Source of the DNA: Nitrospirota bacterium
GTDB taxonomy: Bacteria; Nitrospirota; Thermodesulfovibrionia; Thermodesulfovibrionales; Dissulfurispiraceae
DNA length: 64,000 nt
Reading direction: 5' to 3'
Assembly (NCBI GenBank): GCA_963710375.1
Contig: CAVPZX010000003.1
Location: 1 to 64,000, forward strand
Shown piece after piece: positions 10,596 to 58,660 of this stretch. The notes under the pieces were generated by a model. The model did no database searches, was not told the origin of the DNA, and saw only the letters and a list, made by a program, of their open reading frames with translations. The position numbers were made by a program, and so were the translations under genes. Position 1 is the stretch's first letter. Each line of letters begins with the position of its first letter.

Positions 10596-11180
10596 ATGGA
10601 AAAGAAGATACTCAGGGCATTTGAAGACAGCATTGCGGTGAAGGAAAAATTTGTCAAGGAGTACGCACCGCTGATTGCCGAGGTGTCGAGGCTGATAGCC
10701 GACGCCTTCAATGACGGCAAAAAGGTTTTGATATTCGGTAATGGAGGGAGCGCCTGCGATGCCTCGCACATTGCTGCTGAATTTGTCAACCGGTTTAAAA
10801 GAGACCGCCCCGGACTGCCTGCCATCGCCTTGAATACTGATATGGCTGTGGTGACGTCTATTGCCAATGATTATGATTATTCCGAGATTTTCGCAAGGCA
10901 GGTCAAGACATTGGGTGAGGAAGGGGACATCACTGTTGCCATAAGCACCAGCGGAAGCTCGAAAAATATTCTTAAAGCTGTTGATGCTGCAAAAAAGAAA
11001 GGGCTGAGAACGATTGCCTTTACCGGTTCGAAAGGTGAAAGATTCGCTGCCAAGAATGATTACGCCTTCGTTGTTCCTTCCGAAGACACCCCCCGTATAC
11101 AAGAGGTGCATATAACGCTTGCTCATGTTATGTGCCAGATGGTTGAAGAAATACTTTTTGAAGCTCCAAGGAAAAAATAG
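10596..11180 (+). CDS. gmhA: Phosphoheptose isomerase
   Basis: GNGGSACDASHIAAEF, ANDY, ISTSGSS, TPRIQEVH. Confidence 0.96.
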   Translation: MEKKILRAFEDSIAVKEKFVKEYAPLIAEVSRLIADAFNDGKKVLIFGNGGSACDASHIAAEFVNRFKRDRPGLPAIALNTDMAVVTSIANDYDYSEIFARQVKTLGEEGDITVAISTSGSSKNILKAVDAAKKKGLRTIAFTGSKGERFAAKNDYAFVVPSEDTPRIQEVHITLAHVMCQMVEEILFEAPRKK

Positions 11181-11301
11181 GCAATAGGCTATAGGCATTG
11201 GGCTATAGGTTATAGAATAATAAATGATAAAAACTATTTTCCATCCTGTCCTGTCTTTATATCTTTCCCTATTGCCCATAGCCTATTGCCCATCGCCCGT
11301 T
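11176..11301. repeat. Inverted tandem heptamer repeat (AATAGGC / GCCTATT type)
   Basis: aataggc aataggc tataggc attgggc tataggt ... ccctatt gcccata gcctatt gcccatc; starts at the gmhA stop. Confidence 0.85.
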
Positions 11302-11309
11302 TTTTTTCT

Positions 11310-11822
11310 ATGAAAATCCTCGGCATCGACCCTGGAAGCGTCTATTGCGGGTATGGTTTCATAAAGGCCCCTGACAGAAACGCGCATAATGCAGGCAGCC
11401 GAAAGAACTGGCGGCCTATGTACCTGTCTTCCGGGAGAATCGTTCTCCCCGCTCGCCAGCCGCTCCATATACGGCTGAAAGAGCTTTACACCAACCTAAC
11501 TGAAGTTATTGCGGAATACGGTCCTGACGAAATAGTCATAGAAAAAATGTTTTTTGCAAGGGGTATAAAAGCGGCCATAAGCCTTGGGCATACAAGAGGT
11601 GTTGTTCTCATTGCCGCTGCCCTCACGGGCCTCGACATCTATGAGTATTCTGCCCTTGAAGTCAAGAAGTCGGTGGTAGGTTACGGAAAGGCTGACAAAA
11701 ACCAGGTCCAGAAGATGGTCAAAGAAATCCTGACAATTGGACATCCCCTCTCTCCCGACAGTGCCGATGCGCTGGCATTGGCACTGTGCCATGCCCATAC
11801 CAGAAAGTTCGATTGTCCCTAA
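11310..11822 (+). CDS. ruvC: Holliday junction resolvase RuvC
   Basis: MKILGIDPG, IVIEKMF, EYSALEVKKSVVGYGKADK, DSADALALALCH. Confidence 0.96.
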   Translation: MKILGIDPGSVYCGYGFIKAPDRNAHNAGSRKNWRPMYLSSGRIVLPARQPLHIRLKELYTNLTEVIAEYGPDEIVIEKMFFARGIKAAISLGHTRGVVLIAAALTGLDIYEYSALEVKKSVVGYGKADKNQVQKMVKEILTIGHPLSPDSADALALALCHAHTRKFDCP

Positions 11823-12071
11823 CAATAATCGAGGCCCGTGACATTATGAAGAAACAGGCTGAAGAGTCTGCTTAGTGAAAGTCGGTCTATCTCAACAGCA
11901 TCATGCAGTTCTCTCCTCTGGCTGTAGCTACAACAGAACCCGGCTGAGCGCTCGGTGGAATGACACGTAACTTATCTTTTTTGAATTTCTGTATCGGGAT
12001 TTGCGTTATAATAAACTAATTACCATGAAGCAGAGTTACCTATACGCAAACACCCGTAGCATTGGTCTGTC

Positions 12072-12644
12072 ATGATTGCGTCATTGCGCGGGAAGCTCAT
12101 TTCAAAAAGACCGGACAGGCTGATCGTTGACGTGCATGGCGTAGGTTACAGCGTTCAGGTGCCATTGACACTCATCTCATCTCTTCCTGACGAACACACG
12201 GACATCTTCCTTTATATCCATACGCATGTGAGAGAAGATGCATTACAGCTCTTCGGCTTCCAGGCAGAAGATGAAAAAAGGATATTTACGACGCTGATTG
12301 GGATTTCAGGCATCGGGCCCAGAACAGCGCTTAACCTCCTTTCTACCATCCCACCGGAAAAATTTTATACTGCCATCGATGCCGAAGATGTCGATGTTTT
12401 GTGCAAGGTCCCGGGACTCGGCAAGAAGACGGCGAACCGGTTGATCCTTGAACTGAAAGATAAGCTACCGTCATTCAAAGAGAAAAGGAATACCGTGTAT
12501 GACGACACTCTTTCCGCGCTGGTAAACCTGGGCTATAAAAAGAGCATTGCAGTGGATGCCGTCGATAAGGCGTACGGTACAGGTAAGGGCGACATTGAAA
12601 GTTTGCTTAGGGAGGCTTTAAAATATCTTACGGTGGATAAATGA
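12072..12644 (+). CDS. ruvA: Holliday junction DNA-binding protein RuvA
   Basis: [38 protein letters not shown]. Confidence 0.97.
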
Positions 12645-13663
12645 GGATAGATGACAAAGAGGTTGGGCCTTTGTCTCCTGAAGCTGATCAGGAGGAGATG
12701 ACTTATGAGTCCAACCTGCGGCCCCGCACACTTGATGAGTTTGTAGGACAGCAGCGGACCAAAGATAATCTGAAGGTTTTTATTGCTGCCGCTGCGCTGA
12801 GAAAGGAGCCGCTTGACCACGCGCTTTTTTTCGGCCCTCCCGGTCTCGGCAAAACAACGCTTGCCACTATTATAGCCAACGAGTTGGCGGTGAATATAAA
12901 AAGCACATCTGGCCCAGTCCTCGAAAGACCGGGCGATCTCGCGGCTATATTGACTAATCTTTCCGACCGCGACATTTTGTTCATTGATGAAATTCACCGG
13001 CTTCCCAGGATTGTGGAAGAGGTGCTTTATCCTGCCATGGAGGACTTTAACCTTGACATTATTATAGGCCAGGGTCCCAACGCCAGGACTTTAAAATTGA
13101 ACCTCCCGCGCTTTACTCTGATAGGAGCTACAACACGTACGGGACTTTTGACCTCCCCGCTGCGCGACCGGTTCGGTGTCATATGCAGGCTTGAGTTTTA
13201 CACGCCGGATGAGCTTAAGGAAATAGTGGGACGCTCTGCGCACCTGCTCGAAATGCGGATAAAAGATGATGCCGCTATCGAGATTGCAAAGAGATCACGG
13301 GGCACACCCAGGATCGCAAACCGGCTGCTCAAGAGGATCAGGGATTTTGCCCAGGTTAAGGGGGATGGAAGTATCGATATGGCGATAACCAGACAGGCCC
13401 TGACAGCGCTTGACATCGACCATCTTGGACTTGATGAAATCGACAGAAAGTTGCTTTGGGCCATTATCGACAAATTCGGCGGGGGGCCGGCCGGCGTTGA
13501 TGCTATCGCAGCCTCCATGAGGGAGGACCGGGAAACGATTGAAGATGTATATGAGCCGTATTTGTTGCAGGAGGGCCTTATTGAAAGGACAGCGAGAGGA
13601 AGGCTTGCTACAAGGCTGGCCTACGAGCACTTAGGAAAAAAGCTGCCCCAAGGCCTGTTTTAA
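12641..13663 (+). CDS. ruvB: Holliday junction helicase RuvB
   Basis: [40 protein letters not shown]. Confidence 0.98.
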
Positions 13664-13667
13664 ACTG

Positions 13668-14213
13668 ATGAAGCTGCTGATGCATATCTGTTGTGCAAAC
13701 TGCGCCACCTATCCTATGTCAGTAGTTAAAGAACGAGGGATTACGGTAAAAGGCCTCTGGTTCAATCCTAACATCCACCCATTCACGGAATATAGGAACA
13801 GACTTGAGGCCCTTCAAAAGCTCCAGCAACTATGGGGTTTGGATATTGAGTACATTGATTATTACGGTTTAAAGGAATACCTCAGAAATGTAGTAGGAAA
13901 TGAGGGCAACAGATGCGAATACTGCTATACCGCCAGACTCGAACAGGCCGCACTCAAGGCCCTGGAAGTAAAGGCGGATGCATTTTCAACCACCCTCCTG
14001 GTGAGCCCGTATCAGAAATTTGATATGATTATCGACATCGGTCGCATGATCCAGAAGCGGCACTCTGTAGAATTTTATGGCGAAGATTTCAGGCGCGGCT
14101 TTAGTGAGGGCAGGCAAATGGCTAAAACAATGGACCTCTACCGGCAGAAATACTGCGGATGCATCTATTCTGAAATGGAGAGATATCAAAAAACCGTGAA
14201 TGGTGAAATGTGA
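13668..14213 (+). CDS. queH: Epoxyqueuosine reductase QueH (DUF208)
   Basis: LLMHICCANC, FNPNIHP, RCEYCY, LYRQKYCGC. Confidence 0.92.
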   Translation: MKLLMHICCANCATYPMSVVKERGITVKGLWFNPNIHPFTEYRNRLEALQKLQQLWGLDIEYIDYYGLKEYLRNVVGNEGNRCEYCYTARLEQAALKALEVKADAFSTTLLVSPYQKFDMIIDIGRMIQKRHSVEFYGEDFRRGFSEGRQMAKTMDLYRQKYCGCIYSEMERYQKTVNGEM

Positions 14214-14316
14214 ATAGTGAAAAGGTAGAGGCAAAACAGAAAACAAAAAATGTGCTTTCGACTTTGGTTTTTAACTATTCACTTTTCACCATTCACTATT
14301 CACTTTTTTACGGTTT
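14191..14316. repeat. Inverted tandem heptamer element (GTGAATR / YATTCAC) with conserved core
   Basis: gtgaatg gtgaaat gtgaata gtgaaaa ... tattcac ttttcac cattcac tattcac; core homologous to the 31461 copy. Confidence 0.9.
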
Positions 14317-14325
14317 ACGTTAGTT

Positions 14326-14550
14326 ATGGATGGATTGCATCAAATAGGAAGGTTTTTAATAATTATCGGCATTGTTTGTGCCGCAGTAGGAGGGTTGTTT
14401 CTTTTTTCCGGAAAGGTCCCATGGCTCGGCAGACTTCCGGGTGATATTATTGTCCAAAAGAAAAATTTCACATTTTATTTCCCTCTGGCGACCAGCATTC
14501 TTGTCAGTGTCATATTAAGCCTGCTGCTCTGGTTTTTCGGTAGGCGCTGA
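14326..14550 (+). CDS. DUF2905 small membrane protein
   Basis: WLGRLPGDI...FTFYFPLATSILVS. Confidence 0.92.
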   Translation: MDGLHQIGRFLIIIGIVCAAVGGLFLFSGKVPWLGRLPGDIIVQKKNFTFYFPLATSILVSVILSLLLWFFGRR

Positions 14551-15561
14551 ATGGGTATTTTAAAATACCCAATGCTCTTCCTGGTGGCCCTTGCTTTATG
14601 CCTGGCGGCCCACCCTTCTCTGTCAATTGCAGAGCCGACTATGCGAGTATTGCTCGTTGACGGTAAAAATGCAAAGATACCGCGGAAAGATGAACAGGTC
14701 GAGAAGATCGGCACTGCCAGGGGAGAGGTCATTCTAAGCGGACTGAAATATTTCGGTAATATCGAGGTCTGGAAGGGTGAGGGGGGACTCTATATAATTA
14801 ACGAAATCTCCCTGGAGGATTACGTGAAAGGAGTGGTGGCAGCCGAAGAAGGGAGCAAATGGGATCTTGAGGCACTAAAGGCCCAGGCAGTTGCTGCTCG
14901 CACGTATGCCTTGTACCAGCGCTTGAACAACGTAACATCTAAGATGCGCTACGATCTTACTTCTACAGTTCTGCACCAGGCATTCAAGGGAAATGACATT
15001 CCGGCGAGCATAGTAAAGGCAGTAGATGAAACAAAGGGAGAGGTGCTTATGTATAAGGGAAGCCTGATTATTGCTTACTATCATTCTACAAGCGGGGGAG
15101 TCACTGAGGACCCGGCTGCGGTTTTCGGCAAAAGCTATCCCTATTTAAAATCTATGGAGACAAACTGTGAACTGTCTCCTTATTTCATGTGGGAGAAGAG
15201 AATTCCTGCTGCAGACATTGAGAAGGCAATGAATGTATCAGGTCTAAAAGATATTATTATTGACTCATATACGGTTTCAAACCGGGTCAAGATATTCAGG
15301 CTTGTAACTGAAAAAGGTGAAGTTGAAGTCTCGGGCCCCGAGTTCAGAAAGGATATAGGGTGGGATGAACTGCCAAGCACTTTGATTACAGATATAACCA
15401 GGGACGGAACCACTTATATTATTGAGGGAAGAGGCTATGGCCACGGCGTCGGCATGTGCCAGTGGTCCGCTCTCGAAATGGCGAAAGAGGGAAAGAATTA
15501 CAGGGAGATACTCTCTACGTTTTACCCGGGTACTACTATTGAGCGCTATGAGGACCGCTGA
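14551..15561 (+). CDS. SpoIID/LytB-domain peptidoglycan hydrolase
   Basis: LEDYVKGVVAAE, EALKAQAVAARTY, YHSTSGG, GYGHGVGMCQW. Confidence 0.93.
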   Translation: MGILKYPMLFLVALALCLAAHPSLSIAEPTMRVLLVDGKNAKIPRKDEQVEKIGTARGEVILSGLKYFGNIEVWKGEGGLYIINEISLEDYVKGVVAAEEGSKWDLEALKAQAVAARTYALYQRLNNVTSKMRYDLTSTVLHQAFKGNDIPASIVKAVDETKGEVLMYKGSLIIAYYHSTSGGVTEDPAAVFGKSYPYLKSMETNCELSPYFMWEKRIPAADIEKAMNVSGLKDIIIDSYTVSNRVKIFRLVTEKGEVEVSGPEFRKDIGWDELPSTLITDITRDGTTYIIEGRGYGHGVGMCQWSALEMAKEGKNYREILSTFYPGTTIERYEDR

Positions 15562-16648
15562 TTTCGATTTTGATCTGCCACAGGAATTGATCGCTTCACG
15601 ACCTTCCGACAAGAGAGACTATTCACAGCTGCTGATACTCCATAGGGATGGATCTATTGAGCATAAGCGCTTCTTTAACATTGTAGACTATCTTGAAGAA
15701 GGCGATATGATTTTAATGAACAATACCAAGGTATTTCCCGCACGCATTATCGGCAAAAAGACGGGGGGTCGGACAGTCGATATTCTATTGGTCAGAGAAA
15801 CGGCCGACAAATCAATATGGGAAATATTATGCAAGGGACATTGTGATGGACCCGTAACCGTTTTTGACAATATTAACGCTAAGATCGAAACGCATTATCC
15901 GGGTAACCAAAATGGGACAAAGAGATATCTGAGGATTCCGGAAAACGCTGTTGTTAAGTTGAACGACCTTGTTTGGAAGTATGGTTATATGCCTCTGCCA
16001 CCCTATATTAAGCGCATGCCGGAAGATTCAGACAAGGAACGTTACCAGACTGTCTACGCTGAGAAGCAGGGCTCTATAGCGGCACCTACTGCAGGACTTC
16101 ACTTTACAGATGATCTTATACATAAAATACAAAACAAGGGAGTATTCGTGAGGTTTTTGACCCTTCATGTCGGGACAGGCACATTTAAGCCCGTAAGAGC
16201 CGAATATGTGCAAGACCACAATATGGATTCAGAATATTTTGAAATGGACCAGTCAATAATAGAGGAGTTACAGCAGGTAAAGAAGAGCGGCAGAAGGGTT
16301 GTTGCGGTGGGGACAACAACAACCAGGACATTGGAGGGCATTGCAAGCGGGAAATATAAGATTTTCAATGAGTTGAATACTTCAAGCGGTCCTTTGGTGA
16401 AGAACGGTTTGCCCGACACAGGCACAAGTATGTCTGTAATAAAAGGGGCCACTGACATCTTTATTTGTCCTGGTTACAGCTTCAAGGCGGTTGACTGCCT
16501 CGTCACCAATTTTCATCTGCCACGCTCAACGCCGCTTATGCTTGTATCTGCGCTTTCTGATTTTGGTAAAATATCAAATGCATACAAGGAGGCCATTGCA
16601 AAGGATTATAGATTTTTCTCCTATGGTGATGCTATGCTAATTTTATGA
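15548..16648 (+). CDS. queA: S-adenosylmethionine:tRNA ribosyltransferase-isomerase
   Basis: FDFDLPQELIA, PLPPYI, YQTVYA, AAPTAGLHF, TNFHLPRST, FSYGDAM; start ATG 15548. Confidence 0.97.
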   Translation: MRTADFDFDLPQELIASRPSDKRDYSQLLILHRDGSIEHKRFFNIVDYLEEGDMILMNNTKVFPARIIGKKTGGRTVDILLVRETADKSIWEILCKGHCDGPVTVFDNINAKIETHYPGNQNGTKRYLRIPENAVVKLNDLVWKYGYMPLPPYIKRMPEDSDKERYQTVYAEKQGSIAAPTAGLHFTDDLIHKIQNKGVFVRFLTLHVGTGTFKPVRAEYVQDHNMDSEYFEMDQSIIEELQQVKKSGRRVVAVGTTTTRTLEGIASGKYKIFNELNTSSGPLVKNGLPDTGTSMSVIKGATDIFICPGYSFKAVDCLVTNFHLPRSTPLMLVSALSDFGKISNAYKEAIAKDYRFFSYGDAMLIL

Positions 16649-17514: not shown

Positions 17515-17552
17515 AGCGAATCGAGCGTTCAGCGGGAAGCGTTGAGCGCAAA
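17515..17552 (+). repeat. Degenerate heptamer tract (AGCGTTN)
   Basis: agcgaat..agcgttc agcggga agcgttg agcgcaa just before the phoH ATG. Confidence 0.5.
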
Positions 17553-29972: not shown

Positions 29973-30782
29973 TCAACGTCGTAAATACCATTGCAATATG
30001 ACCTTGCCGAAGAACAATGTTGCCAGTGCGCCAAGCGCAAGGAACGGTCCGAAGGGTATTTTAGACTTCCTCCCTTTTCCTTTTGCGACCATAAGAAAGA
30101 TGCCCACCAGAGAGCCGCTCAGGCTGCCTATAAATGTGGTAAGGAAAATTGCCTTCCACCCCATGAACGCACCTACCATTGCCATCATCTTGATATCACC
30201 GCCTCCCATACCCCCCCTGCTTATGAGGGCGATCAGGTAGAACAGCCCGCCGCCGAGCAGCAGGCCGGTAAGAGCATTAACAAAGCCGACAATTGAATGG
30301 CTGAGGACTGAGGGCTGAAGGCTAAAGGCTGAACGATGGACGCTGAAAGGGTCCGGCAGCACAAATGATGCTGACAGGAGACCTATGACGATGCCGGGCA
30401 GCGTTATCGAATCCGGTATGACTTGAAAATCGAGGTCTATAAACGTTATAACCACCAGCGAAGATACGAGCGCACAAATGAACAGCACATGCCAGCCAAG
30501 GCCGAAGGAGGTTACGACAGACCAGTACAACACCCCGTTGAGCAATTCTACCAGAGGATAACGTAATGATATCGGCCCCCCGCAGCTTCTGCATTTTCCT
30601 CCCAGCAGGATATAACTCACCAGGGGGATATTGTCCCACGGCCTGATCGGCGCATCGCAACCGGGGCAAGCGGAGGGGGGGCTTATAATCGAGAGCGACC
30701 GTGGAATCCGGTAGATGCAAACATTGAGAAATGAGCCGACGATCAGACCGAGGATAAAGAATATAATTTGTGTATGGCTCAC
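29973..30782 (-). CDS. pilD: Prepilin peptidase/N-methyltransferase
   Basis: GSFLNVCIYR, CPGC, CRSC, FIDLD, GMGGGDIK, IPFGPFL. Confidence 0.95.
   Translation of the reverse strand: MSHTQIIFFILGLIVGSFLNVCIYRIPRSLSIISPPSACPGCDAPIRPWDNIPLVSYILLGGKCRSCGGPISLRYPLVELLNGVLYWSVVTSFGLGWHVLFICALVSSLVVITFIDLDFQVIPDSITLPGIVIGLLSASFVLPDPFSVHRSAFSLQPSVLSHSIVGFVNALTGLLLGGGLFYLIALISRGGMGGGDIKMMAMVGAFMGWKAIFLTTFIGSLSGSLVGIFLMVAKGKGRKSKIPFGPFLALGALATLFFGKVILQWYLRR
30294..30349. repeat. In-frame heptamer tract inside pilD
   Basis: ctgagga ctgaggg ctgaagg ctaaagg ctgaacg atggacg ctgaaag; encodes FSVHRSAFSLQPSVLSHS on the minus strand. Confidence 0.8.
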
Positions 30783-31460: not shown

Positions 31461-31640
31461 AAAACAGCGTGAATGGTGAATGGTGAATCGTTTAAAGACC
31501 GTGAAACGTGAAAAGTGAATCGTGAATCGTAAAAAACAAAAGTCAACGACAGCACATTTTTTGTTTTGTGTATTGCCATTAACTTTTCACTTTTCACCTT
31601 TCACCATTCACGGTTTTACGATTCACCATTCACGCTGTTT
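31461..31640. repeat. Inverted tandem heptamer element with conserved core
   Basis: AAAACAGCGTGAATGGTGAAT at both termini in inverted orientation; overlaps the recG stop. Confidence 0.9.
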
Positions 31641-35518: not shown

Positions 35519-35731
35519 CTACTTATTAGGAGCTGGTGCTGGAGCCGGAGCTGGAGCAGGAGCCGGAGCTGGAGCCTCACCCGCCTTTTGCTCAGGAGCT
35601 GGTGCAGGAGCAGGAGCTGGTGCTGGAGCCGGTGCTGGCTCTTCAGCCTTCTTGCAGCTGACTGCAAAGGTAAATGCTACAACAAGCAATAAGGAAAGAA
35701 TTAAAGCTAAAACCTTTTTCAAATTTGTCAC
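35519..35731 (-). CDS. Small Pro-Ala-repeat lipoprotein
   Basis: Signal peptide with lipobox AVSC, then (PA)n tracts; GGAGG SD. Confidence 0.85.
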   Translation of the reverse strand: MTNLKKVLALILSLLLVVAFTFAVSCKKAEEPAPAPAPAPAPAPAPEQKAGEAPAPAPAPAPAPAPAPNK

Positions 35732-42841: not shown

Positions 42842-44488
42842 CTACTGATACCACTCAGCCCGGTTCCTGGGCACATACCAGTGAATGAAATCGTAGTCTA
42901 TGCCCAGAGGGGCCTTTACCACGCCTTTAATGCGTTTGTTCAGTACAGGAAGGGCGTCGGGAACATAGAGGAATGCATATGGCTGTTCTTCGGCAAGTAT
43001 CTGGTGGATCCTGTGGTATATCATTTTTCGTTTCTCCAAAGAGAAGGTGCGCCTGCCTTCGAGCAGCAGCCGGTCCACGGTATCGTTTCTGTATGAGATA
43101 AAATTGAATTCACCCTCTTTGGTTTTTGAAGAATGAAAGATATCGTAAATATCAGGGTCGCGTGAGAGCGCCCACCCCAGAATAACAGCCTCGAAACGTT
43201 TTTTATCAATAAAATCGTGCAGCATTGCCTGCCACTCAAGTACTTTAATTTTTATTTCGATGCCGACCAGTTTGAGTTGTTCTTTCAGTATCTCTGCGGT
43301 TTTGATCCTCTCATCGTTCCCCTGGTTGACGAGAACCGTGAAGGAAAATGTTCTGCCGTCTTTTTCAAGCAGCCCTGAAGAATTCATCTTCCATCCAGCT
43401 TCAGCAAGCATGGCAAGCGCCTTTGCCGGGCTGTAGTCGTAATCTTTTATATCTGGACTATAGGCCCATGATTCAGGGGGGAAAGGGCCGGTGCAGGGAG
43501 TGCCGTATCCTAAGAGGACCCCGGCTATAATCTCTTTTTTGTTGATGGCGTGCGCTATTGCCTGCCTCACCCGCACATCGATGAAAAGCGGATTAAGCAG
43601 ATTGTATCCCATGTAGGTGTATCCGAACGATGGGTACCTGAATTTTTGGAAATATTTATTGAAGAAAGCTGAATTTGCCTGGAGCTTGTATTGAGGAGGG
43701 GTCAATCCCATGAAATCGATGCCGCCGAATTTCAGCTCCAGGAACATTGTTGCAGTATCCGGGATTATGCGATATATGACTTTGTCAATATTCGGTTTCC
43801 CCTCGAAATAGTTGTCGAAGGCATCGAGTACGATTTTTTGTCCGGTCACCCATTCGGTAAGCTTGTAAGGGCCATTTCCGACAGGGTGCCGGTTGATTTC
43901 AGGTGATGAAAGGTCCTTACCCTCAAGCAGGTGCTTTGGCACTATACCCATGCCCCATGATTCAAGCGCAGGGGCAAAAGGTTCTTTGTAGGTAACCTGG
44001 ACTGTATATTTATCGATTGCCTTAACGCTCCTGACAGGCCCGTATATGCTGCTGTACGGTGTAGGCACTTTGGGATCGATTACTTTATTGTAGGTGAAAA
44101 TAACGTCATCAGCAGTGAGTTCCACGCCATCCTGCCATCTGACGCCCTTACGAAGGTGAAAGGTGATACGCAGCCCATCGGTGCTCACTTCCCACGACTT
44201 GGCAATATCGCCGGTCAGCCGTATGTTCTTGTCATACTTTACCAGGCCATGATAAATAAACCCGCTTATTTCTCCTGATGAGCTGTCAGAGGCAAGGAAA
44301 GGAAGCAGCCGTTTGGCATCAGCAAGTGATCCCATCGTAATGTCATTTGGGTATTTGATATCAGGCGCACGTGAACAACCGGGTAAAAACGTGAAAAGCA
44401 AAGACAAAAAAAGTGAAACGTGAAACGTGAATAGTGAATAGTTAAAAGAAAGAAAGGCTGTCTTTTCTTTTATCCTTTCACTCTTCAC
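42842..44488 (-). CDS. Peptide ABC transporter substrate-binding lipoprotein (family 5)
   Basis: Lipobox LPGC; LRKGVRWQDG, PVGNGPY, VRQAIAHAIN. Confidence 0.93.
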   Translation of the reverse strand: MKSERIKEKTAFLSFNYSLFTFHVSLFLSLLFTFLPGCSRAPDIKYPNDITMGSLADAKRLLPFLASDSSSGEISGFIYHGLVKYDKNIRLTGDIAKSWEVSTDGLRITFHLRKGVRWQDGVELTADDVIFTYNKVIDPKVPTPYSSIYGPVRSVKAIDKYTVQVTYKEPFAPALESWGMGIVPKHLLEGKDLSSPEINRHPVGNGPYKLTEWVTGQKIVLDAFDNYFEGKPNIDKVIYRIIPDTATMFLELKFGGIDFMGLTPPQYKLQANSAFFNKYFQKFRYPSFGYTYMGYNLLNPLFIDVRVRQAIAHAINKKEIIAGVLLGYGTPCTGPFPPESWAYSPDIKDYDYSPAKALAMLAEAGWKMNSSGLLEKDGRTFSFTVLVNQGNDERIKTAEILKEQLKLVGIEIKIKVLEWQAMLHDFIDKKRFEAVILGWALSRDPDIYDIFHSSKTKEGEFNFISYRNDTVDRLLLEGRRTFSLEKRKMIYHRIHQILAEEQPYAFLYVPDALPVLNKRIKGVVKAPLGIDYDFIHWYVPRNRAEWYQ

Positions 44489-44509
44489 TATTCACTATTC
44501 ACGTTTCAC
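44383..44509. repeat. Inverted tandem heptamer element spanning the secG stop and the SBP signal peptide
   Basis: gtgaaac gtgaaac gtgaata gtgaata ... ttcactc ttcacta ttcacta ttcacgt ttcact. Confidence 0.88.
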
Positions 44510-44853
44510 TTAGCCGGCTGTGGCGGTTGCTGCGGCAATGGCTGCTGCTGCATTGGCTGTTGTGGCAGTTGTTGAGGAACAGCAGTTCTCTGTTGAGCGG
44601 CTGGGACTTCCTTGATGACGGACGCGTGTTTATTGGCCACCATGGACAAAATCAGGGATGTCAGCATAAATACGATCGCAGAACCTGTTGTGAGTTTGCT
44701 GAGAAACGTGGAGGCTCCCCTGCTTCCAAAGATTGTTTGGCTTGAGCCGCCGAATGCCGCGCCCATTTCCGCGCCTTTGCCGCCCTGCAGCAAGACGATC
44801 GAAATCAAGAACAGGCAGCAAACAACGTGTATAACTACTAAAAGTGTGGCCAT
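44506..44853 (-). CDS. secG: Preprotein translocase subunit SecG
   Basis: VLLQGGKGAEMGAAFGG, FGSRG, LSKLT. Confidence 0.96.
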   Translation of the reverse strand: MATLLVVIHVVCCLFLISIVLLQGGKGAEMGAAFGGSSQTIFGSRGASTFLSKLTTGSAIVFMLTSLILSMVANKHASVIKEVPAAQQRTAVPQQLPQQPMQQQPLPQQPPQPAK

Positions 44854-45635: not shown

Positions 45636-45689
45636 CTTTATACTCTAACGAATCGGAAACTACCTGTCAAGGCCGGCATCAATATTCTG

Positions 45690-45858
45690 GTAGTGGGCCA
45701 GTTTGTTTTTGCTCTGTATCACCTGGGTTATCAGCAGTGGGCGAGTAACGCCGAGCCCAAATATATAGGAAGTGGCGACCACAGATTATGCTCAAAACAG
45801 GCCAATGATTGAATTGAACGGCTAATTGATACAGAGCAAAAACAAACTGGCCCACTAC
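45690..45858. mobile_element. MITE-like element family D (169 bp)
   Basis: 32-bp perfect IR GTAGTGGGCCAGTTTGTTTTTGCTCTGTATCA / TGATACAGAGCAAAAACAAACTGGCCCACTAC. Confidence 0.8.
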
Positions 45859-45914
45859 ACAATATGCCCGTCGAATTGACTTGTATTAATTCTGATAAGT
45901 ATAATTAAAATCTT

Positions 45915-49024: not shown

Positions 49025-49732
49025 ATGCATGAACTGATAACTGTCGCCGGGCTGAAAAAGTCTTTTTATACTCCTGCAGGAGAATTGAGGGTATTAAGAG
49101 GCATAGACACGGTTTTCCATGAGGGGGAAATTGTCAGCATCGTTGGTGTTTCCGGAGTGGGCAAAAGCACTTTTCTCCACATTATGGGCACTCTTGACCG
49201 GCCCACTGAAGGCACCGTTATTTATAATGTTAAAGGAGACGTTGTTGACCCCTTTACACTTGGCAACGGTCAGCTCGCATCATTCCGTAATCGTGTAATA
49301 GGGTTTGTGTTCCAGTTCCACTATCTTTTGCCGGAGTTCAGCGCCCTTGAGAATGTTATGATGCCCGGCTTGCTCATGCAACGCGGGAGTAAACCGACGA
49401 ATGGGACCGGACAGGTGCGGGAACGGGCTGAGAAGTTGTTGGATGATCTCGGTGTTTATGCGCGGCGGGGCCATAAACCCGGGGAATTGTCAGGCGGCGA
49501 GCAGCAGCGAGTGGCAGTTGCAAGGGCACTCTTGCTGGAGCCCAGGGTTGTGCTTGCGGATGAGCCGACCGGCAACCTCGACACCGCTACAGGGGAAGAG
49601 CTTTTCAGGCTTTTAATGGATGTGAACGCGAAAAGCGGTGTCACCTTCATTGTCGTGACTCATAATGAGTCATTGTCGAGAAAGTGTCATAGAACGCTGG
49701 AGATGGTTGACGGCGGGATGACGGTTTCGTAA
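49025..49732 (+). CDS. lolD: Lipoprotein-releasing ABC ATPase LolD
   Basis: GVSGVGKST, GFVFQFH, LSGGEQQR, DEPTGNLD. Confidence 0.94.
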   Translation: MHELITVAGLKKSFYTPAGELRVLRGIDTVFHEGEIVSIVGVSGVGKSTFLHIMGTLDRPTEGTVIYNVKGDVVDPFTLGNGQLASFRNRVIGFVFQFHYLLPEFSALENVMMPGLLMQRGSKPTNGTGQVRERAEKLLDDLGVYARRGHKPGELSGGEQQRVAVARALLLEPRVVLADEPTGNLDTATGEELFRLLMDVNAKSGVTFIVVTHNESLSRKCHRTLEMVDGGMTVS

Positions 49733-49885
49733 AAAGTCCATATGCTGAGTTCCACCCCGTCAAGTCTGCGCCTTGCCAGGGACCCCGGGCGTTGCGCTGC
49801 ATCCTGCGTCACTGCGGCGTACCAAAAGTACGCCTCATTCCTTGGGATTTGTGCGCCTTGCCTATGAACTTTTTACGAAACCGTC
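49720..49885 (+). mobile_element. MITE family A copy 2 with 42-bp internal insert
   Basis: GACGGTTTCGTAAAAAGTCCATA...TATGAACTTTTTACGAAACCGTC; supplies the last lolD codons and stop. Confidence 0.9.
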
Positions 49886-49975
49886 TATTTGTCACTTGAT
49901 TTGGATTTTTTTGATTGAACATAGTGTTGTAAATCGGTTAAGATATTCAGCCTGTTATTGATCGGAGGAGTCGAA

Positions 49976-51869
49976 ATTAAAATTATATTGCCTGACGGTG
50001 CGGAACAAGTAGTAGAGAAGTCCGAGCTGCAGAAACTCATCGAATCATCTCGCGCTATCGCAATCAGCGTCAACGGAAATTTAGTGGACATGGCGTCACT
50101 GGACGCCCTTGCTCCTGAGTCTGTAATAGAACTGGTTAACGCACAATCAAAAGAGGGGAAAGAGATTTACCGCCACAGCACATCTCACATCATGGCCCAC
50201 GCCGTGAAGGAATTGTTTCCCGATGTTAAATTTGCCATAGGCCCTGCCACAGAAGAAGGCTTTTATTATGACTTTGACAGGGCTGAACACTTTGCCCCTG
50301 AGGACCTTGAAAAAATTGAAAAGAGGATGAAGGAGATTATCAAGCAGAACAAGCCCTTTGTAAGGAAAGAGATTGCAAGAGATGAGGCAATAGCACGTTT
50401 CAGGGAAATGGATGAACCATACAAGGTTGAACTGCTTGAGGATATTTCCGATGCCACAGTCTCGCTGTATGAAGAGGGCGGGTTTGTTGACCTTTGCAGA
50501 GGGCCGCATCTGTCCCGGACCGGAAGAGTTAAGGCATTCAAACTCTTGAGTATTGCGGGGGCCTACTGGCGCGGCAGCGAAAAGAACAAAATGCTCCAGA
50601 GGATATACGGAACTGCCTTTGATACAAAAGAGGAGCTCAAGTCATACCTAGATTATCTTGAAGAGGTCAAAAAACGTGATCATCGCAAGCTTGGCAAAGA
50701 ACTGGATCTTTTCAGCATAAGCGACGAAATCGGACCCGGCCTGATTCTCTGGCACCCGAATGGAGCAATAATCAGAAAGACAATAGAGGACTTCTGGAGG
50801 AACGAGCATCTCAAGGCGGACTATAAAATCCTTTTTTCACCGCATATTGCGAGGCTGCATTTATGGCAGGAGAGCGGGCACTGGGACTTTTACAGGGAAA
50901 ACATGTACTCCCCGATGGAAATAGACGAAATTGCCTACGAGTTGAAGCCGATGAATTGTCCTTTCCATATCAACATATATAAAAGTCAGCTCAGGAGCTA
51001 CCGGCACCTGCCGCTGAGGTATGCTGAACTCGGCACGGTATACAGGTACGAAAGGTCCGGCACGCTGCACGGACTTATGCGGGTGAGGGGTTTTACCCAG
51101 GATGATGCGCATATATTCTGCAGGGAGGACCAGATCGAGGAGGAAATCGTGAATATACTCGATTTCACGCTTTTCATTCTCAGGACCTTCGGATTTGACT
51201 CATACGATATATATCTTTCTACCAGACCTGAGAAATATGTGGGCGCCCTTGACAACTGGGAGCATGCGACAAATGCCTTGAAGCAGGCGCTTGAGAAGAA
51301 GGGATTGCCCTACGTTGTAGACCCCGGAGAAGGCGTTTTTTACGGGCCCAAGATAGATATAAAGATAAAGGACTCTCTGAACAGGGCATGGCAGTGCAGC
51401 ACCATACAGGTTCAACTTCAATCTCCCCGAGAGGTTCGATACGGTATACAGGGGTAGTGACGGCAAAGAGCACAGGCCCATTATGATCCATCGCGCATTA
51501 ATGGGATCGCTGGAACGCTTTTTCGGTGTTCTTATCGAGCATTATGCAGGTGTCTTCCCGCTCTGGCTTGCTCCGGTACAGGTGTCGGTTTTGACAATTG
51601 CGGAAAGGCATGACGTCTATGCCCGGCAGGTATATGAGGCGCTCAAACGCGCCGGTATAAGGTCCGAAACAAATACCGACAACGAGAAGATAGGGTACAA
51701 GATCCGTGAAGCCACGATGAGAAAAGTTCCATATTTGATTATAATAGGGGACAAAGAACTCGAGGATCAGAAAGTTACTGTAAGAAAGCGTGATGGTGAA
51801 AATATCGGGCCATTTACAATAGACGAATTTATGTTGATAATAGTAGAAGAAATAAATTCTCGTAAATGA
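49976..51869 (+). CDS. thrS: Threonine-tRNA ligase (apparent +1 frameshift near 51412; possible AUU start)
   Basis: RHSTSH, DLCRGPH, RDHRKLG, KPMNCP, RVRGFTQDD, FYGPK, then FNLPERF...MIHRA in a shifted frame. Confidence 0.95.
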
Positions 51870-51959
51870 GCGAATGAGTAAATGGGCATATGAGTATAAT
51901 TAACTCTTGACCCGTACATGCATATACTCATATACTCATTTATCCATTTACCCATTTAT
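51862..51959. repeat. Inverted tandem octamer repeat
   Basis: gtaaatga gcgaatga gtaaatgg gcatatga ... tcatatac tcatttat ccatttac ccatttat; overlaps the thrS stop. Confidence 0.85.
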
Positions 51960-52480: not shown

Positions 52481-52499
52481 GATAGAAAGGAGAAATGAA

Positions 52500-52700: not shown

Positions 52701-52701
52701 G

Positions 52702-52749
52702 ACAGGTAAAGGAATAGGTGTCGCACTCTCTACCTTTACCTGTTTTTTT
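52702..52749 (+). terminator. Putative intrinsic terminator between rpmI and rplT
   Basis: ACAGGTAAAGG...CCTTTACCTGT followed by a T run. Confidence 0.6.
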
Positions 52750-52835
52750 GGCTTGACGCTTTAGTGCCTGATTAATTAAAATGTAAGCTATTAATGTGAG
52801 TTAAGAAGTTTTTTCGGACAGAGAAGGAGGATAAG

Positions 52836-53189: not shown

Positions 53190-53277
53190 CAGACCGGTTC
53201 AAAGCAACCCGATAGCAGCAGGCATTAAGGCGATGATTATTTGCTGCAGTCTACTTCTGTGTTCGCCATGTTAAATA

Positions 53278-54288
53278 ATGATGATCGAAGATCTGAAACA
53301 GAAATTTCTGAATGAATTAAAGTCTGTTATAAGTACTGCTGATCTGTTTCAGCTTAGAATCAATTATCTGGGCAAAAAGGGACATGTCACAGCTGCCCTG
53401 AAAGCGCTTTCTTCAGCAGCGCCGGAAGACCGGCCGCTGCTCGGCAAGAAGATAAACGATGTAAAACAATTTATCGAAGCCGAGTTAGATGCCAAAGAAG
53501 CCTTCCTCAAAAACCAAGCGCTGAAAAAACAGTTGTCGGCCGGGTTCATTGATATAACTCTGCCCGGCAAATACACTGCTATTGGCATCCAGCACCCTAT
53601 CAATAAAGTTCTTTTCGAAATAGTGGATATTTTTGTCAGGATGGGATTCAGTGTTGAAGAAGGCCCGGAAGTAGAACATGATTATTATAACTTCGAGGCG
53701 CTGAATTTCCCAAGGGAGCATCCTGCGCGTGATATGCAGGACACCTTTTTTGTTAGTGACGATATTGTGCTCAGGACCCATACATCTCCGGTGCAGGTGA
53801 GGGGAATGGAAAAGAGAAAGCCCCCTGTGCGGTTCATTGCCCCCGGAAAGGTGTACAGGTGTGATGCCGATATAACTCATACACCCATGTTCCATCAGGT
53901 CGAGGGGCTTATGGTGGATAAAGATATTACGTTCAGCAATCTGAAAGGTGTCCTAGAGGCATTTCTTCATCAGATATTCGGTCCTGATACACCGGTGCGG
54001 TTCAGGCCGAGCTTTTTCCCTTTCACCGAGCCGTCGGCAGAGGTAGATATAGGCTGTATACTTTGCGGCGGTTCCGGCTGCAGGGTTTGCAAAAATTCGG
54101 GCTGGCTCGAAATCCTCGGCGCCGGTATGGTAAACCCGGCAGTTTTTAAATATGTCGGATATGATCCGGAAGTTTATTCAGGGTTCGCCTTCGGAATGGG
54201 GATTGAAAGAATAGCAATGCTCAAATATTCGATTGACGACATCAGGCTGTTTTACGAGAACGATGTCAGATTCCTGAGGCAGTTTTGA
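53278..54288 (+). CDS. pheS: Phenylalanine-tRNA ligase alpha subunit
   Basis: [37 protein letters not shown]. Confidence 0.98.
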
Positions 54289-54410
54289 CGGTCTCGTAAA
54301 AATCCCATATGCTGCGTTGCGCTGCATCCTTAGTCACTGCGGCGTACGAAAAGTACGCCTCATTCCTGCGGATTTGCGCGCCTTGCCTATGGACTTTTTA
54401 CGAAACCGTC
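54287..54410 (+). mobile_element. MITE family A copy 3 (124 bp)
   Basis: GACGGTCTCGTAAAAATCCCATA...TATGGACTTTTTACGAAACCGTC; overlaps the pheS stop. Confidence 0.9.
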
Positions 54411-54454
54411 GGGTTTAATAGGAAAAATAGGTAAAGGATGGTGTCCCGTTTATC

Positions 54455-56545
54455 ATGAGGGTTTCTCTTGAATGGCTGAGGGAATTTGTTCCGGTCAGCG
54501 AATCTGCCGCAGAAGTGGCACATCGTCTCACTATGCTCGGGCTTGAAGTCGAAGCAATGGAGCAGGTTGACGGGGACACTGTTTTTGAGATCAACGTGAC
54601 CCCTAACAGGCCAGACTGCCTCAGTATGATCGGTGTTGCCCGCGAACTGTCCGCAGCCTACGGTCAGACACTTGGCTTCCCCGAGCATGTGGTCGCGGCA
54701 GAGACAGGAGAACTTGATTTTAATGTAGATATCCATGACCCCGCCCTCTGCCGGCGATACGCAGGGAGGATAGTCAAAGGGCTTAAAATCGGCCCTTCAC
54801 CTGAGTGGCTTAAGCGCAGGCTCGAAAAATGCGGGTTTAGATCAATAAACAATGTGGTCGATGTAACCAATTATGTCCTCATTGAACTGGGACACCCCCT
54901 CCATGCCTTTGACCTGGGCACTATCAAGGGACGCCGCATACAGGTCGGCACATCGAGGAATGTTAAGGGCAAGACCGAAAAGTTGCGTTTCCGTACCCTT
55001 GACGGGAACGAGCAGGAACTGCCCGGGGATGCGCTTCTTATATGGGACGCCGAAGATCCTATAGCGATTGCCGGGATTATGGGCGGACTCGAAACGGAAG
55101 TCAGCGATTCGACTGTCGATATTTTTATTGAGAGCGCCTGGTTCGACCCAGTATCGGTAAGGAAGACCTCAAGGTCAACGTGCCTGAAGACCGAGGCGTC
55201 ATTCAGGTTTGAACGGGGTACGGATATAAAGATGCTTAAGAAGGCCTTGGACAGGGCAGCCTTGCTTATGCACGAGATTGCAGGCGGTACAGTCTACGGA
55301 AAAATAGACATCTACCCTGTAATATACTCACCAAGGGAAATCAGTATCAGCTGCGAAAAGATAAACAGAGTGCTGGGGCTGGATCTGACCGAAGCGAAAA
55401 TTACCCATTACCTGAATGCATTGGGTTTTGGTGTGGATAAGGTAAACAAATATTTTAATATTACACCGCCGGCATATAGGGAGGACGTACAGGGCGGCTT
55501 CGATATTATAGAAGAGGTCGCACGGGCATACGGGTATGAGAGAATCCCGGCGGTCCTGCCGACCGCGGTTGTCGGCATCGAGGCTCAGGACGACGCGCGG
55601 AAATTATTTTCAGGGGCTCTTCTAAAAGAGGTGAAGGAATCTTTTTTAAAGTCGGGATTTACCGAAGTAATCAATTACAGTTTTATGGGAGAACAGGACC
55701 TGGATTTCCTGGGTTTCGATACTGACGATGAACGCAGGAAAATGGTGCGGATAAAGAACCCTCTGCGCACTGAAGATGCCTGCATGCGAACAACACTTGT
55801 TCCTGCCTTGATTAAAAATATCGTGTATAACGTATCACACGATAACAGATCATTCAGGTTTTATGAAATATCCAGGGTCTTTTTAAGCAAGGAGGGGAGC
55901 TCACTCCCTGAAGAAAGAAACCACTTCGCAGCAGCATTATATAAAGAAAAAATACGATCGCTTTACAAGGATGATACCCACGACTTTTTTGTGGTCAAGG
56001 GCGTAATTGAGGCCCTGTTTGATGTTCTCAAAATAAGCAGTTATTCCTTTGCCAGGTCATCGGAACACTTTCTGCACCCCGGGCAATCTGCGGATATATT
56101 GATAGGCGGCGAGAAGATCGGATACGTCGGGGCCTTGTCTCCGGTTATTATCGGTCGTCTTGACATAAAGGCGCATAATCCTTCAATAATCCTTGCAGAG
56201 ATTGATGTTGAACTCATCAGACCTTATTCCATGCAGGCACTCAAATATCATCCATTGCCCAGGTATCCCTATAGTGAAAGGGACACTGCGCTTGTGGTAG
56301 ATGAATCCCTTGAATCAGCGGAGATTGTTGCATTGCTAAAGTCCTATAGTTCTGACCTGATAGAGGACGTTTCGCTATTCGACGTCTATCAGGGGAAGAA
56401 CATCCCTGAAGGAAAAAAGAGCATCGCCTTTTCGATCCGGTACAGGGCGTCAGACCGGACACTGAAAGATGAGGAGGTTGACGTCCTCCACGATCAGATC
56501 ATTGCATTCGTTATCGAAAGAACCAAGGGACAGCTCAGGACTTAG
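54455..56545 (+). CDS. pheT: Phenylalanine-tRNA ligase beta subunit (short form lacking B2 domain)
   Basis: SLEWLRE, TPNRPDCLS, INNVVDVTNY, RFERG, EEVAR, RTLKDEE. Confidence 0.97.
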   Translation: MRVSLEWLREFVPVSESAAEVAHRLTMLGLEVEAMEQVDGDTVFEINVTPNRPDCLSMIGVARELSAAYGQTLGFPEHVVAAETGELDFNVDIHDPALCRRYAGRIVKGLKIGPSPEWLKRRLEKCGFRSINNVVDVTNYVLIELGHPLHAFDLGTIKGRRIQVGTSRNVKGKTEKLRFRTLDGNEQELPGDALLIWDAEDPIAIAGIMGGLETEVSDSTVDIFIESAWFDPVSVRKTSRSTCLKTEASFRFERGTDIKMLKKALDRAALLMHEIAGGTVYGKIDIYPVIYSPREISISCEKINRVLGLDLTEAKITHYLNALGFGVDKVNKYFNITPPAYREDVQGGFDIIEEVARAYGYERIPAVLPTAVVGIEAQDDARKLFSGALLKEVKESFLKSGFTEVINYSFMGEQDLDFLGFDTDDERRKMVRIKNPLRTEDACMRTTLVPALIKNIVYNVSHDNRSFRFYEISRVFLSKEGSSLPEERNHFAAALYKEKIRSLYKDDTHDFFVVKGVIEALFDVLKISSYSFARSSEHFLHPGQSADILIGGEKIGYVGALSPVIIGRLDIKAHNPSIILAEIDVELIRPYSMQALKYHPLPRYPYSERDTALVVDESLESAEIVALLKSYSSDLIEDVSLFDVYQGKNIPEGKKSIAFSIRYRASDRTLKDEEVDVLHDQIIAFVIERTKGQLRT

Positions 56546-56605
56546 GTCTCAGCCTGCAGCATCAACCGTTCCTTTGTGGTATCATTATGTAAGAGAGGAG
56601 GGTTT

Positions 56606-56875
56606 ATGCAGATTAGGACAACTATAGAGCTTTGGCAAAAAGGTAAATGGGTTATCGCTAAAATGCCCGAGCTTGATTTTGTCACACAGGGGCGCACGAT
56701 AGAGGAGGCTAAGTCGAACTTAAAAGAAGTTGTCAGGATACAGTTCGAGGAAATGAAAGAACTCGGGACTCTTGAGGACTACCTTGCTGAGTGCGGTTTC
56801 GAGATCAGAGGAGACAATGTTGAACCGATTAATGAAATGATCGGGTTTGAGAAACAGTTTGTTCAGGTAAATTAA
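56606..56875 (+). CDS. HicB-family antitoxin (short)
   Basis: AKMPELDFVTQGRTIEEAKSNLKEV. Confidence 0.88.
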   Translation: MQIRTTIELWQKGKWVIAKMPELDFVTQGRTIEEAKSNLKEVVRIQFEEMKELGTLEDYLAECGFEIRGDNVEPINEMIGFEKQFVQVN

Positions 56876-57105
56876 TGCCCAAAATATATCCGACTGACTG
56901 GAAGACTCAGCGCCGGATATTTGAGCTGTTCGGTTGTAAATATAAACGTAAAGAAGGTTCTCACCATATTCTAACCTACCCTGGAGCAAAAAGAGCCGTT
57001 GTTATCCCTGAATACGATGAAATCGACATTGACATCATCAAAAGCAATATGCGTACAGTCGGTATGAGCAGGGAGCAATATTTTGAGTTGTTGAAGATGG
57101 TATGA
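56875..57105 (+). CDS. HicA-family toxin
   Basis: FGCKYKRKEGSHHIL...VVIP...IIKSN. Confidence 0.88.
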   Translation: MPKIYPTDWKTQRRIFELFGCKYKRKEGSHHILTYPGAKRAVVIPEYDEIDIDIIKSNMRTVGMSREQYFELLKMV

Positions 57106-57224
57106 ATTTACCGTGCAAGTTTCATTCGGGGAAGCGCATAATGGAGATGATTAGAGTGGAGCTTACTTCACCGACAAGTCCTCGCGAATCAACATACCGC
57201 AATAGTGAAGATTTTCGAGAGAAG

Positions 57225-57410
57225 TCAGTGGTAACGATGGTCCACAGCTTCCAAACGGCCTCCACAAGAACAAAATAACTGAATGATGATGACGATATCT
57301 TGCGAAGGGGCTATATTATAGCCGGAAGAAAGCTCAAATGAGGCAGAGGAGACATGGAATATCTCTATTATGGTAGAGACGGGACTACTTCTAACAAATC
57401 TTCCACACAC
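57225..57410 (-). pseudogene. Truncated SRAP/YedK (abasic-site processing) gene fragment
   Basis: MCGRF...YNIAPSQ N-terminus; similarity lost after about 43 codons. Confidence 0.8.
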
Positions 57411-57628
57411 TTAAGAATTAGATGAGTAAAGAAAAAATGCGACAGAGATAACAGCCGCGATAATGGCAACCCCTACAATCTTCCAGTTGACCTTATAACG
57501 CTTTTCCCCAGGAGAAATTAGCCCCCCGCTGTAGTCAATGCAAGCAAAATGTGGCTGAAGGTTTTATTGTTCCGGTGGGAATTGCGCCAAGCCTGTTGTC
57601 AATGAAGATATTTATTGCCTGTTGTTGT

Positions 57629-57982
57629 TCATGCATGGCCCATTGGGCCATCCGGATTGTTTTGGCGGTATATAGCGGCTGCAGTCGTTCCCACATCCTC
57701 AAGCATTTCCCTGATAACTATATCCAATCTTTTTATCGATATCTTCAGAGTGTCCGCTACCTGCGGCAACGGAATACCCTTCCCGAAATGCATCTCGGCA
57801 ATTAGAACCTTTAGAGCATCATCTTCAATAAAGTGTTTTAATTCGGGATCCTGCACATCAACCATGCTGAATGCCTCGCTGAAGCTTAACCCGTTTTCCA
57901 CGCCCTTTCTGATTTTTATAATGGCTTCGCTATAAATCAAGCGCTCTTCCGGCGTATAGTCCTTGTATTTGAAATCAGCCAT
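57629..57982 (-). CDS. Hypothetical protein
   Basis: 117-aa ORF with AAGGA SD and ordinary composition. Confidence 0.75.
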   Translation of the reverse strand: MADFKYKDYTPEERLIYSEAIIKIRKGVENGLSFSEAFSMVDVQDPELKHFIEDDALKVLIAEMHFGKGIPLPQVADTLKISIKRLDIVIREMLEDVGTTAAAIYRQNNPDGPMGHA

Positions 57983-58116
57983 AAAATTCCTTTCTGTTAA
58001 ATTAGTTGTCTTTCAATTTAGCATAGATACGCTGCTTTTAGCTAATTCTGGGGTAGAGCGCCGGGCAAATGCTCTATCTACTGATATGCACCCTCTTTTC
58101 GTGCTAATCTGCCGTT

Positions 58117-58296
58117 ATGCATAAAAAGCCGTTTCCTTTGAGCTCGTTACCGCTGAAAACCAAAATTACCGGACTGGTGCTGATTCTCTTTTTGTCCAGC
58201 ATCTGGGTCTTAACCAGTGCAATCGATGTGGATCGTAAGTTTGCTGTTTCCTTCGGCGTGAGGGGGGCCTCCTATATAGATTACACCGCAAAGTAG
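58117..58296 (+). pseudogene. Possible N-terminal remnant of a membrane sensor gene
   Basis: ...LPLKTKITGLVLILFLSSIWVLT... resembles TM1 of Cache/PAS sensors; stops after 59 codons. Confidence 0.35.
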
Positions 58297-58624
58297 CTCG
58301 TGAAATGTCAAGATGTCGGGCGGCTGAGCATAATAAGAAGTGATACCAGAGTAATAAAAAATCGTCATGCGTGGAACCGCTACACTGCTTTAGGGCTACA
58401 ACTTATCATTATATGGAACACCCCCTCAGTACTGAATGTACTTAACGCCTAGTAGACTATATTCCCGATAGTACATCGCCCAATTGTTACAATGGCACCC
58501 ACTGAGTATTTGCAGGAAGGAATAAAAGGTATTTGCACAAGCAAAGGCCATGCAGTGTGCGAGCTGGAACTAACACTCGATCTAACATTGCTGATCGATC
58601 TGGTTTTATATTTTACAATTCATC

Positions 58625-58660
58625 AGCGCTCGACTCACGACGCTCGACGCTATCGCGCTA
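58625..58660 (-). repeat. Heptamer tract at the copZ stop
   Basis: Minus strand agcgcg at agcgtcg agcgtcg tgagtcg agcgctg. Confidence 0.5.

Follow-up and report, generated by a model that had tools for sequence, protein, structure and literature searches.

The first 64 kb of contig C3 from the genome of a Nitrospirota bacterium (contig CAVPZX010000003.1 of assembly GCA_963710375.1; a 3.19-Mb genome, 98.8% complete), a stretch that we call the window, contains five long hairpins of similar build: a run of tandem heptamers or octamers, a spacer, and a second run in inverted orientation. We found that these elements belong to a genome-wide population, and that most of its members fall in clusters matching the arms that flank one of six resident genes for four-helix-bundle proteins (PF05635/TIGR02436). 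The feature is real and systematic. The explanation that we favour, with about as much doubt as conviction, is that the elements are self-complementary insertions that spread as non-autonomous kin of the PF05635 cassette, helped by its cognate protein and by host repair enzymes.

A genome-wide population of paired tandem arrays

Tandem Repeats Finder returned 191, 57 and 51 rows of period 7, 6 and 8 over the whole genome, against 0, 0 and 1 in a Markov-simulated genome, and arrays of period 6, 7 and 8 numbered 139, 307 and 62 (0, 2 and 3 in the simulated genome). The scan for inverted pairs that a sequence-only reading of the window had proposed as a check was clear-cut: for 421 of the 508 arms a reverse-complement arm lies no more than 700 bp away, compared with 9 in the control, and the purine-rich arm comes first in 397 of these 421. 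The arms merge into 235 elements, 220 of which measure 260 bp or shorter. Their layout is constant, with a purine arm of about four units (median 4; exactly 4 in 201/440 arms), a spacer that is first A-rich (46% A) and then T-rich (44% T), and a pyrimidine arm, and the 220 short elements fold into strong hairpins (median z -7.6). Unsupervised clustering defines ten or more unit families, most of them not of the G-quadruplex (G4) type, and no run of three G occurs in the consensus units computed for the 11 largest clusters. Density is highest on contig C5 (G000:C5:205000-330000), at 10.3 elements per 100 kb. As for other cargo, there is no GxxExxY gene (PF13366) in the genome, and those of the 15 long elements that were inspected and held an ordinary gene turned out to be two separate elements or chance pairings.

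Arms match the flanks of four-helix-bundle genes

The sequence-only reading had suggested that similar arms flank genes of the TIGR02436 type, and this link was supported. All six PF05635/TIGR02436 genes of the genome are flanked by arms, each with a different unit family, and clusters comprising 149 of the 220 short elements match the flanks of a resident gene (cosine 0.4 or more), a count that rises to 176/220 when two clusters best matched by a close relative of a resident gene are added. These elements thus share with the cassettes the family and polarity of their arms and differ in having no open reading frame (ORF) between them; the window elements enclose no ORF, and all six genes lie elsewhere in the genome. 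The further suggestion that the elements are empty versions of such a cassette holds for the arms; a simple internal deletion found no support, the spacers containing no remnants of four-helix-bundle coding sequence (4 against 5 in shuffled sequence at score 28). Five of the six genes are on C5, several of them amid sugar-nucleotide and polysaccharide genes.

The association extends well beyond one genome. When the window genome and its relatives are taken together, arms flank 36/36 four-helix-bundle genes (judged by eye), and the unit family follows the protein clade (18 changes against 27.4 after shuffling, 0/200; 36 genes, with labels assigned by eye). Flank words are common to 8 of the 14 non-orthologous pairs with at least 65% protein identity and to 2 of the 592 pairs below 55% (0/5000 permutations), so that the agreement of clade and family also holds between loci with unrelated neighbours. 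Across phyla, pairing flanks surround 57 of 80 homologous loci, with a control of 1.3%; of the control genomes, Bacteroides thetaiotaomicron alone has a member of the gene family. The four-helix-bundle genes of Xanthomonas are flanked by the very word described in that genus by Rehm et al. 2015 (PMC4692102; statements on this and the other published systems refer to the portions of those papers available to us). In four of the relatives' loci (L078, L093, L096 and L090) the four-helix-bundle gene has an internal stop codon and the arms are intact.

The elements of the window

All five paired tracts of the sequence-only reading were recovered at their positions, each folding as a long hairpin (z -5.6 to -11.4 relative to shuffles) and each with the stop codon of the upstream gene in its first arm; ORFs were called with our own hexamer model, so that start positions are approximate. 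The element at 11176-11301, of an AGGCAAT-type heptamer family, occupies the interval between gmhA, whose TAG lies at 11178-80, and ruvC. Three elements belong to a GTGAATA-type family: one at 14191-14316 between queH (TGA at 14211-13) and a DUF2905 gene, assigned to a sublineage with a shared spacer; a double-armed one at 31461-31640 that begins at the stop of recG (TGA at 31630-32, minus strand); and one at 44383-44511 that takes in the stop of secG (TGA at 44506-08, minus strand) and whose second arm lies within the frame of a downstream lipoprotein gene. The fifth, of an octamer family, lies at 51862-51959 between thrS (TGA at 51867-69) and infC. The three single arms that had also been reported are present, with no pairing partner and a folding z of about 0. 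A decayed purine arm (17515-17548, plus strand) stands directly upstream of phoH, and another decayed arm (58625-58660, minus strand) covers the stop of a copZ-like HMA gene (58650-58853, minus strand); the arm at 30294-30345 (minus strand) is not intergenic and lies in frame inside a gene for a prepilin peptidase A24 (29973-30782, minus strand).

The queH and recG elements are 80% identical over 117 nt. The last residues of QueH and its stop are encoded by the first arm, which differs among species, and comparison with congeners indicates that the position of the gmhA stop is ancestral. The second arm of the secG element forms part of the signal region of an OppA-like ABC substrate-binding lipoprotein, ahead of the lipobox Cys, and relatives that have no secG element show an ordinary signal peptide at the N-terminus of this protein. 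An assembly artefact as the source of the tracts is ruled out by short-read contigs: one (run X3) reproduces the secG element without any difference, and a second, which spans the thrS element, aligns over 2.3 kb with a single mismatch and a single gap, the latter corresponding to an extra base within thrS. That gene (49958-51869) is split by this base, near 51412, which is missing from three short-read data sets, and is mostly a single open frame of 634-649 aa in close relatives; the split is an assembly error.

No Rfam family reaches its gathering score in the window. Its other features include a MITE-like family (MITE, miniature inverted-repeat transposable element) at 45689-45860, with terminal inverted repeats; a second dispersed repeat family at 49720-49890, upstream of thrS, which also occurs after tRNA-Ile in the rRNA spacer and has high contig depth in metagenomes; a gene with an IS481-like integrase domain followed by an AAA ATPase (5078-7212, minus strand), an IS21-like or Mu-like pair; and a six-base tandem repeat with Ala/Pro/Gly coding potential at 35529-35638, unrelated to the paired elements.

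Placement at stop codons and inside genes

The 220 short elements comprise 153 between co-oriented genes, 27 between convergent genes, 25 between divergent genes, 14 inside ORFs and one that could not be placed. The predicted enrichment at stop codons was found where it could be expressed: with at least 60 nt of free space, 25 of 42 elements overlap a stop, against 4.1 expected. Over all co-oriented cases the excess is slight (123/153 against 108 expected) because tight junctions leave no room, and 25/27 convergent elements touch a stop. The original wording, nucleation at stop codons, is nevertheless too narrow, given that 39 of the 219 placed elements are either in divergent intergenic regions or inside ORFs, and nucleation from local sequence does not hold, as the units are drawn from a limited set of genome-wide families. 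The first 30 nt of an element offer stops in 2.1 frames on average (1.7 after shuffling) and the last 30 nt in 0.8, and the identity of the stop codon often agrees with the unit sequence. With a first arm so rich in stops, tolerance and targeting are inseparable from these data.

Host genes of the 14 in-frame elements include those for PrmC, HypF, RimO, a DegT-type aminotransferase and a Mut7-C protein. The stretch concerned in PrmC measures 27-28 aa in eight of the nine congeners and reaches 51 aa in the window genome and 68 aa in G001; the HypF insert is absent from G005, and the RimO linker contains different families in different species. In the Mut7-C protein, the window genome and G001 have two arms in separate loops around a native segment; in G002 and G003 only the second arm is present. 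A further 12 candidates are N-terminal, among them the lipoprotein downstream of secG. The in-frame stretches are probably translated, judging from their reading frames, into variable, low-complexity peptides that differ by family and frame.

Both 23S rRNA genes contain, near their 5' end, a hexamer element of 138 nt that replaces 6 model positions (about 283-288 of the Rfam model) and has no ORF. Among the 13 usable loci (L328 was mis-anchored and left out), this loop is 17-18 nt long in G001 and G018 and is occupied by hexamer, heptamer-like or octamer families in the others; the two copies of G003, a genome that is 6% contaminated, show two different families. Between tRNA-Ile and tRNA-Ala of an rRNA operon lies another gene-less element (L308, G000:C2:687130-687196), which is absent from G005 and replaced by another family in G003.

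Rapid turnover among relatives

The sequence-only reading had expected presence/absence variation among relatives, and we found it in abundance. Four of the nine congeners have a gmhA-ruvC junction of 5-9 nt; in the other five it is filled, with the family of the window genome in G008 only. Several unit families occupy the queH, thrS and secG sites across congeners; the thrS element is absent from G008, which has a full paired element at the phoH junction where the window has a decayed single arm. In 44 orthologous comparisons, made by eye over 400-kb blocks of G005 and G008, 20 sites were empty, 10 held the same family, 9 another family and 5 something else. Reuse of a site by another family exceeds a rough base rate of 7% (p 0.003), in a set of related genomes that are not independent. 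Related metagenome contigs, compared at a likeness threshold of 88 and among the best rows only, skip 7 of 9 elements in one 20-kb block, with 0-44 other letters at the site where this is given. We rejected the idea that spacers are retained host DNA: empty sites contain only about 0-60 nt unlike the spacer, with Mut7-C as the sole exception.

These features recall ordinary MITEs moved by a resident transposase, either the IS481-like enzyme of the window or the single Y1 transposase, both of which are present: the elements are short, non-autonomous and polymorphic, have inverted ends, and share some spacers. We nonetheless regard this as highly improbable. When these two transposase genes were examined, no arms were called at the IS481 gene or in the roughly 3 kb to either side of the Y1 gene. 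As for target duplication, the only clean junction shares no letters and one other has a possible 3-nt overlap, the remaining junctions being too diverged. Near-identical copies at many loci, as in the MITE-like family of the window (about 20 genome copies at 89-95% identity), are not seen here, where only 45 of the 183 spacers are related to one from a different locus (null 2-9).

Arms vary largely independently of their partners, and units of their neighbours

Within a unit, 4-5 positions are fixed, mostly at 90-100%, and 2-3 are free. Adjacent units are identical at frequencies of 0.10, 0.26 and 0.12 in the three largest clusters, against 0.12, 0.25 and 0.13 expected. Neighbours are therefore no more alike than independent draws, which argues against slippage and bears out the earlier statement that the arrays are not its simple product. 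Likewise, an arm pairs with its own partner barely better than with the arms of other members (35.3 against 34.3, p 0.02, in a comparison that inherently selects for own pairing), and unit sharing between the two arms of an element exceeds permutation in cluster 11 (0/1000) and marginally in cluster 8, with no excess in 6 of the 8 clusters examined; together these results argue against mirror copying. A scheme without any dedicated factor, in which a local seed at the stop codon expands by slippage and template switching then gives a mirror arm, would be in keeping with the frequent match between stop codon and unit, with one clearly expanded arm in G008 and with cluster 11. It is largely contradicted by the chance-level identity of neighbours, by unit cores that are 97-100% fixed while other positions vary, by the six clusters without own-arm excess, and by the small number of genome-wide families, each matching a cassette, and we consider it very unlikely.

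Selection by the host for RNA elements that adjust the expression of operons, as stabilising stems, terminators or RNase III sites, has in its favour the strength of the hairpins over the 220 elements, their location after stops and the copy inside the 23S rRNA gene; Xanthomonas repeats, moreover, are mostly transcribed, and those of the G4 type are more often at transcript ends (PMC4692102). Yet 20/44 orthologous sites are empty, 25 elements lie between divergent genes, the own arm is in the top tenth of its peers in only 11.8% of 212 elements, and opposed G-U pairs do not significantly outnumber A-C (206 against 175, p 0.12). We judge this possibility unlikely, and the insulating role at the RNA level that had been suggested for the stems found no support in these pairing data.

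Whole elements appear to be copied. The 45/183 spacers with a relative at another locus come from a test in which arm remnants in some spacers inflate the share of same-family pairs (66/71); an earlier and weaker test gave 15 against 2 of 127, its top pair belonging to the rRNA duplication. An asymmetric spacer is common to 13 hand-picked elements on six contigs, including those at queH and recG. The free positions behave differently from the spacers: in the four closest paralogous pairs, free dinucleotides match at 0.38, with a background of 0.30 and 0.68 expected from spacer divergence, and in two orthologous pairs with shared spacers at 0.30-0.33. Agreement at the free positions is thus close to chance even between elements with a spacer likeness of 76-80% or more, and the usage of these positions differs between genomes (422, 39 and 16 units). 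These small numbers point to arms that may be rewritten or homogenised.

Such observations could also be accommodated by de novo writing, in which the 3' ends of a DNA break would be extended in telomerase fashion with degenerate purine units of one family and an A-rich tail and then rejoined, the four-helix-bundle protein specifying the word. This would explain the fixed polarity, the A-rich then T-rich spacers, the non-mirror arms, the independence of neighbouring units, the genome-specific word usage, and the Mut7-C arms, which lie around a native segment or, in G002 and G003, occur singly. The asymmetric spacers shared by unrelated loci, however, require copying of whole elements, and we found no candidate polymerase or template; we therefore hold de novo writing to be rather unlikely.

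Comparison with known systems

Heptameric short tandemly repeated repetitive (STRR) sequences are described in cyanobacteria. Gene-less inverted heptamer pairs at stops are already known, having been published for Xanthomonas: Rehm et al. 2015 (PMC4692102) reported the heptamers GGGAATC in Xanthomonas and GGGGA(C/T)T in Nostoc, with a preferred number of 4 units, 70-75 inverted pairs and a strong coding-strand bias at or over stops. Our elements share the roughly four tandem heptamers in inverted pairs and the stop bias. They differ in having no G-tract word capable of forming a G-quadruplex, and in being polymorphic, tied to cassettes and of ten or more families, whereas the available part of that paper presents one word per genome, read as a G-quadruplex candidate, at conserved sites and with no link to a gene family. 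The TAACTGA repeats of Beggiatoaceae, Cyanobacteria and Bacteroidetes (MacGregor 2015, PMC4679880) are likewise intergenic heptamer runs that give stops in all three forward frames, are translated within ORFs when reversed, and have an unexplained mechanism; they were counted as direct repeats of one exact word, and the term 'four helix bundle' is absent from the text of that paper.

The S23p intervening sequence of Coxiella (PMC4990558) has a terminal inverted-repeat stem and variable-number tandem heptamers ahead of a PF05635-type ORF. It is located within helix 45 and removed by RNase III, while the element of the window genome lies near the 5' end of the 23S gene and has no ORF; as an insertion within the gene that forms a stem, present in both rRNA copies, the latter corresponds to a 23S intervening sequence. 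REPIN-RAYT systems resemble ours in that many gene-less inverted-repeat elements are matched to a single-copy cognate gene (PMC3116915, 10.1101/2022.05.22.493013), but here the cognate gene is not a transposase, the Y1 transposase is not flanked by repeats, and the arms are tandem degenerate words rather than short palindromes. Rickettsia palindromic elements (RPEs) are also hairpins found in frame in unrelated proteins (PMC10969869), and the PrmC and HypF inserts are comparable in-frame insertions absent from orthologues; RPEs encode a conserved peptide per family, unlike the variable peptides of our mostly intergenic elements. Diversity-generating retroelements differ by their reverse transcriptase and by variation restricted to adenine positions: here, consensus positions with A vary as much as those with T (0.83 and 0.84), and many A positions are fixed.

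A possible mechanism and the evidence against it

The solved structure nearest to the four-helix-bundle proteins, 2GSC (Xcc0516), has five chains, and the related protein Avd binds an RNA stem as a pentamer of positive charge (10.1101/2023.10.23.563531). In the insertion model that we favour, a pentameric protein would recognise its own unit family by the fixed core, on a hairpin strand, elements would be copied to new sites with replacement of 0-44 host bases, and the free positions would be drawn anew or homogenised, either during copying or later. Gene ends would predominate because stop codons are available from the first arm whichever way it is oriented, and protein loops, signal peptides and an rRNA loop would be other tolerated sites.

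Several results weigh against this model. Clusters without a resident cognate gene account for 44 of the 220 elements, about three quarters of the spacers have no detectable relative, and the re-drawing result derives from four paralogous and two orthologous pairs. The overall correlation between protein and flank is not significant (rho 0.084, 213/2000), nor is that between gene count and element density in samples of 15-31 kb from 20 relatives (rho 0.33, p 0.15). In 15-27 kb of G010 and G011, which have 2-3 genes, 0 elements were detected, and G004 has elements and no four-helix-bundle gene found at 81% completeness. That gene and arms travel together does not in itself demonstrate that the protein acts on the arms, and we know of no catalytic activity for a four-helix-bundle protein. 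The 98.8% complete genome gave 0 matches to the reverse transcriptase family RVT_1, and no mobilising enzyme for the elements was identified.

Implications

Bacterial heptamer repeats are known from catalogues that offer no mechanism (PMC4679880, PMC4692102), and where 23S intervening sequences come from is an open question (PMC4990558). We found no paper that links such repeats to four-helix-bundle genes, in a search that left most subscription journals outside and with the proviso that the supplements of PMC4692102 may list enclosed genes; nor did the literature searched describe a multi-family system, its match to resident four-helix-bundle genes, or rewriting. A bolder and more doubtful proposition is that four-helix-bundle (Avd-like) paralogues each dictate a word of 6-8 bases, and that the system writes or rewrites runs of it at the ends of genes and in protein loops, signal peptides and rRNA. 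If this were true, word-specifying DNA writing would account both for the excess of heptamers in bacteria and for the origin of rRNA intervening sequences. The six candidate protein-word pairs of a single genome make this specificity directly testable. By altering the C-termini, loops and export signals of proteins from one close species to another, the elements would also be a source of protein variation comparable to the Rickettsia palindromic elements.

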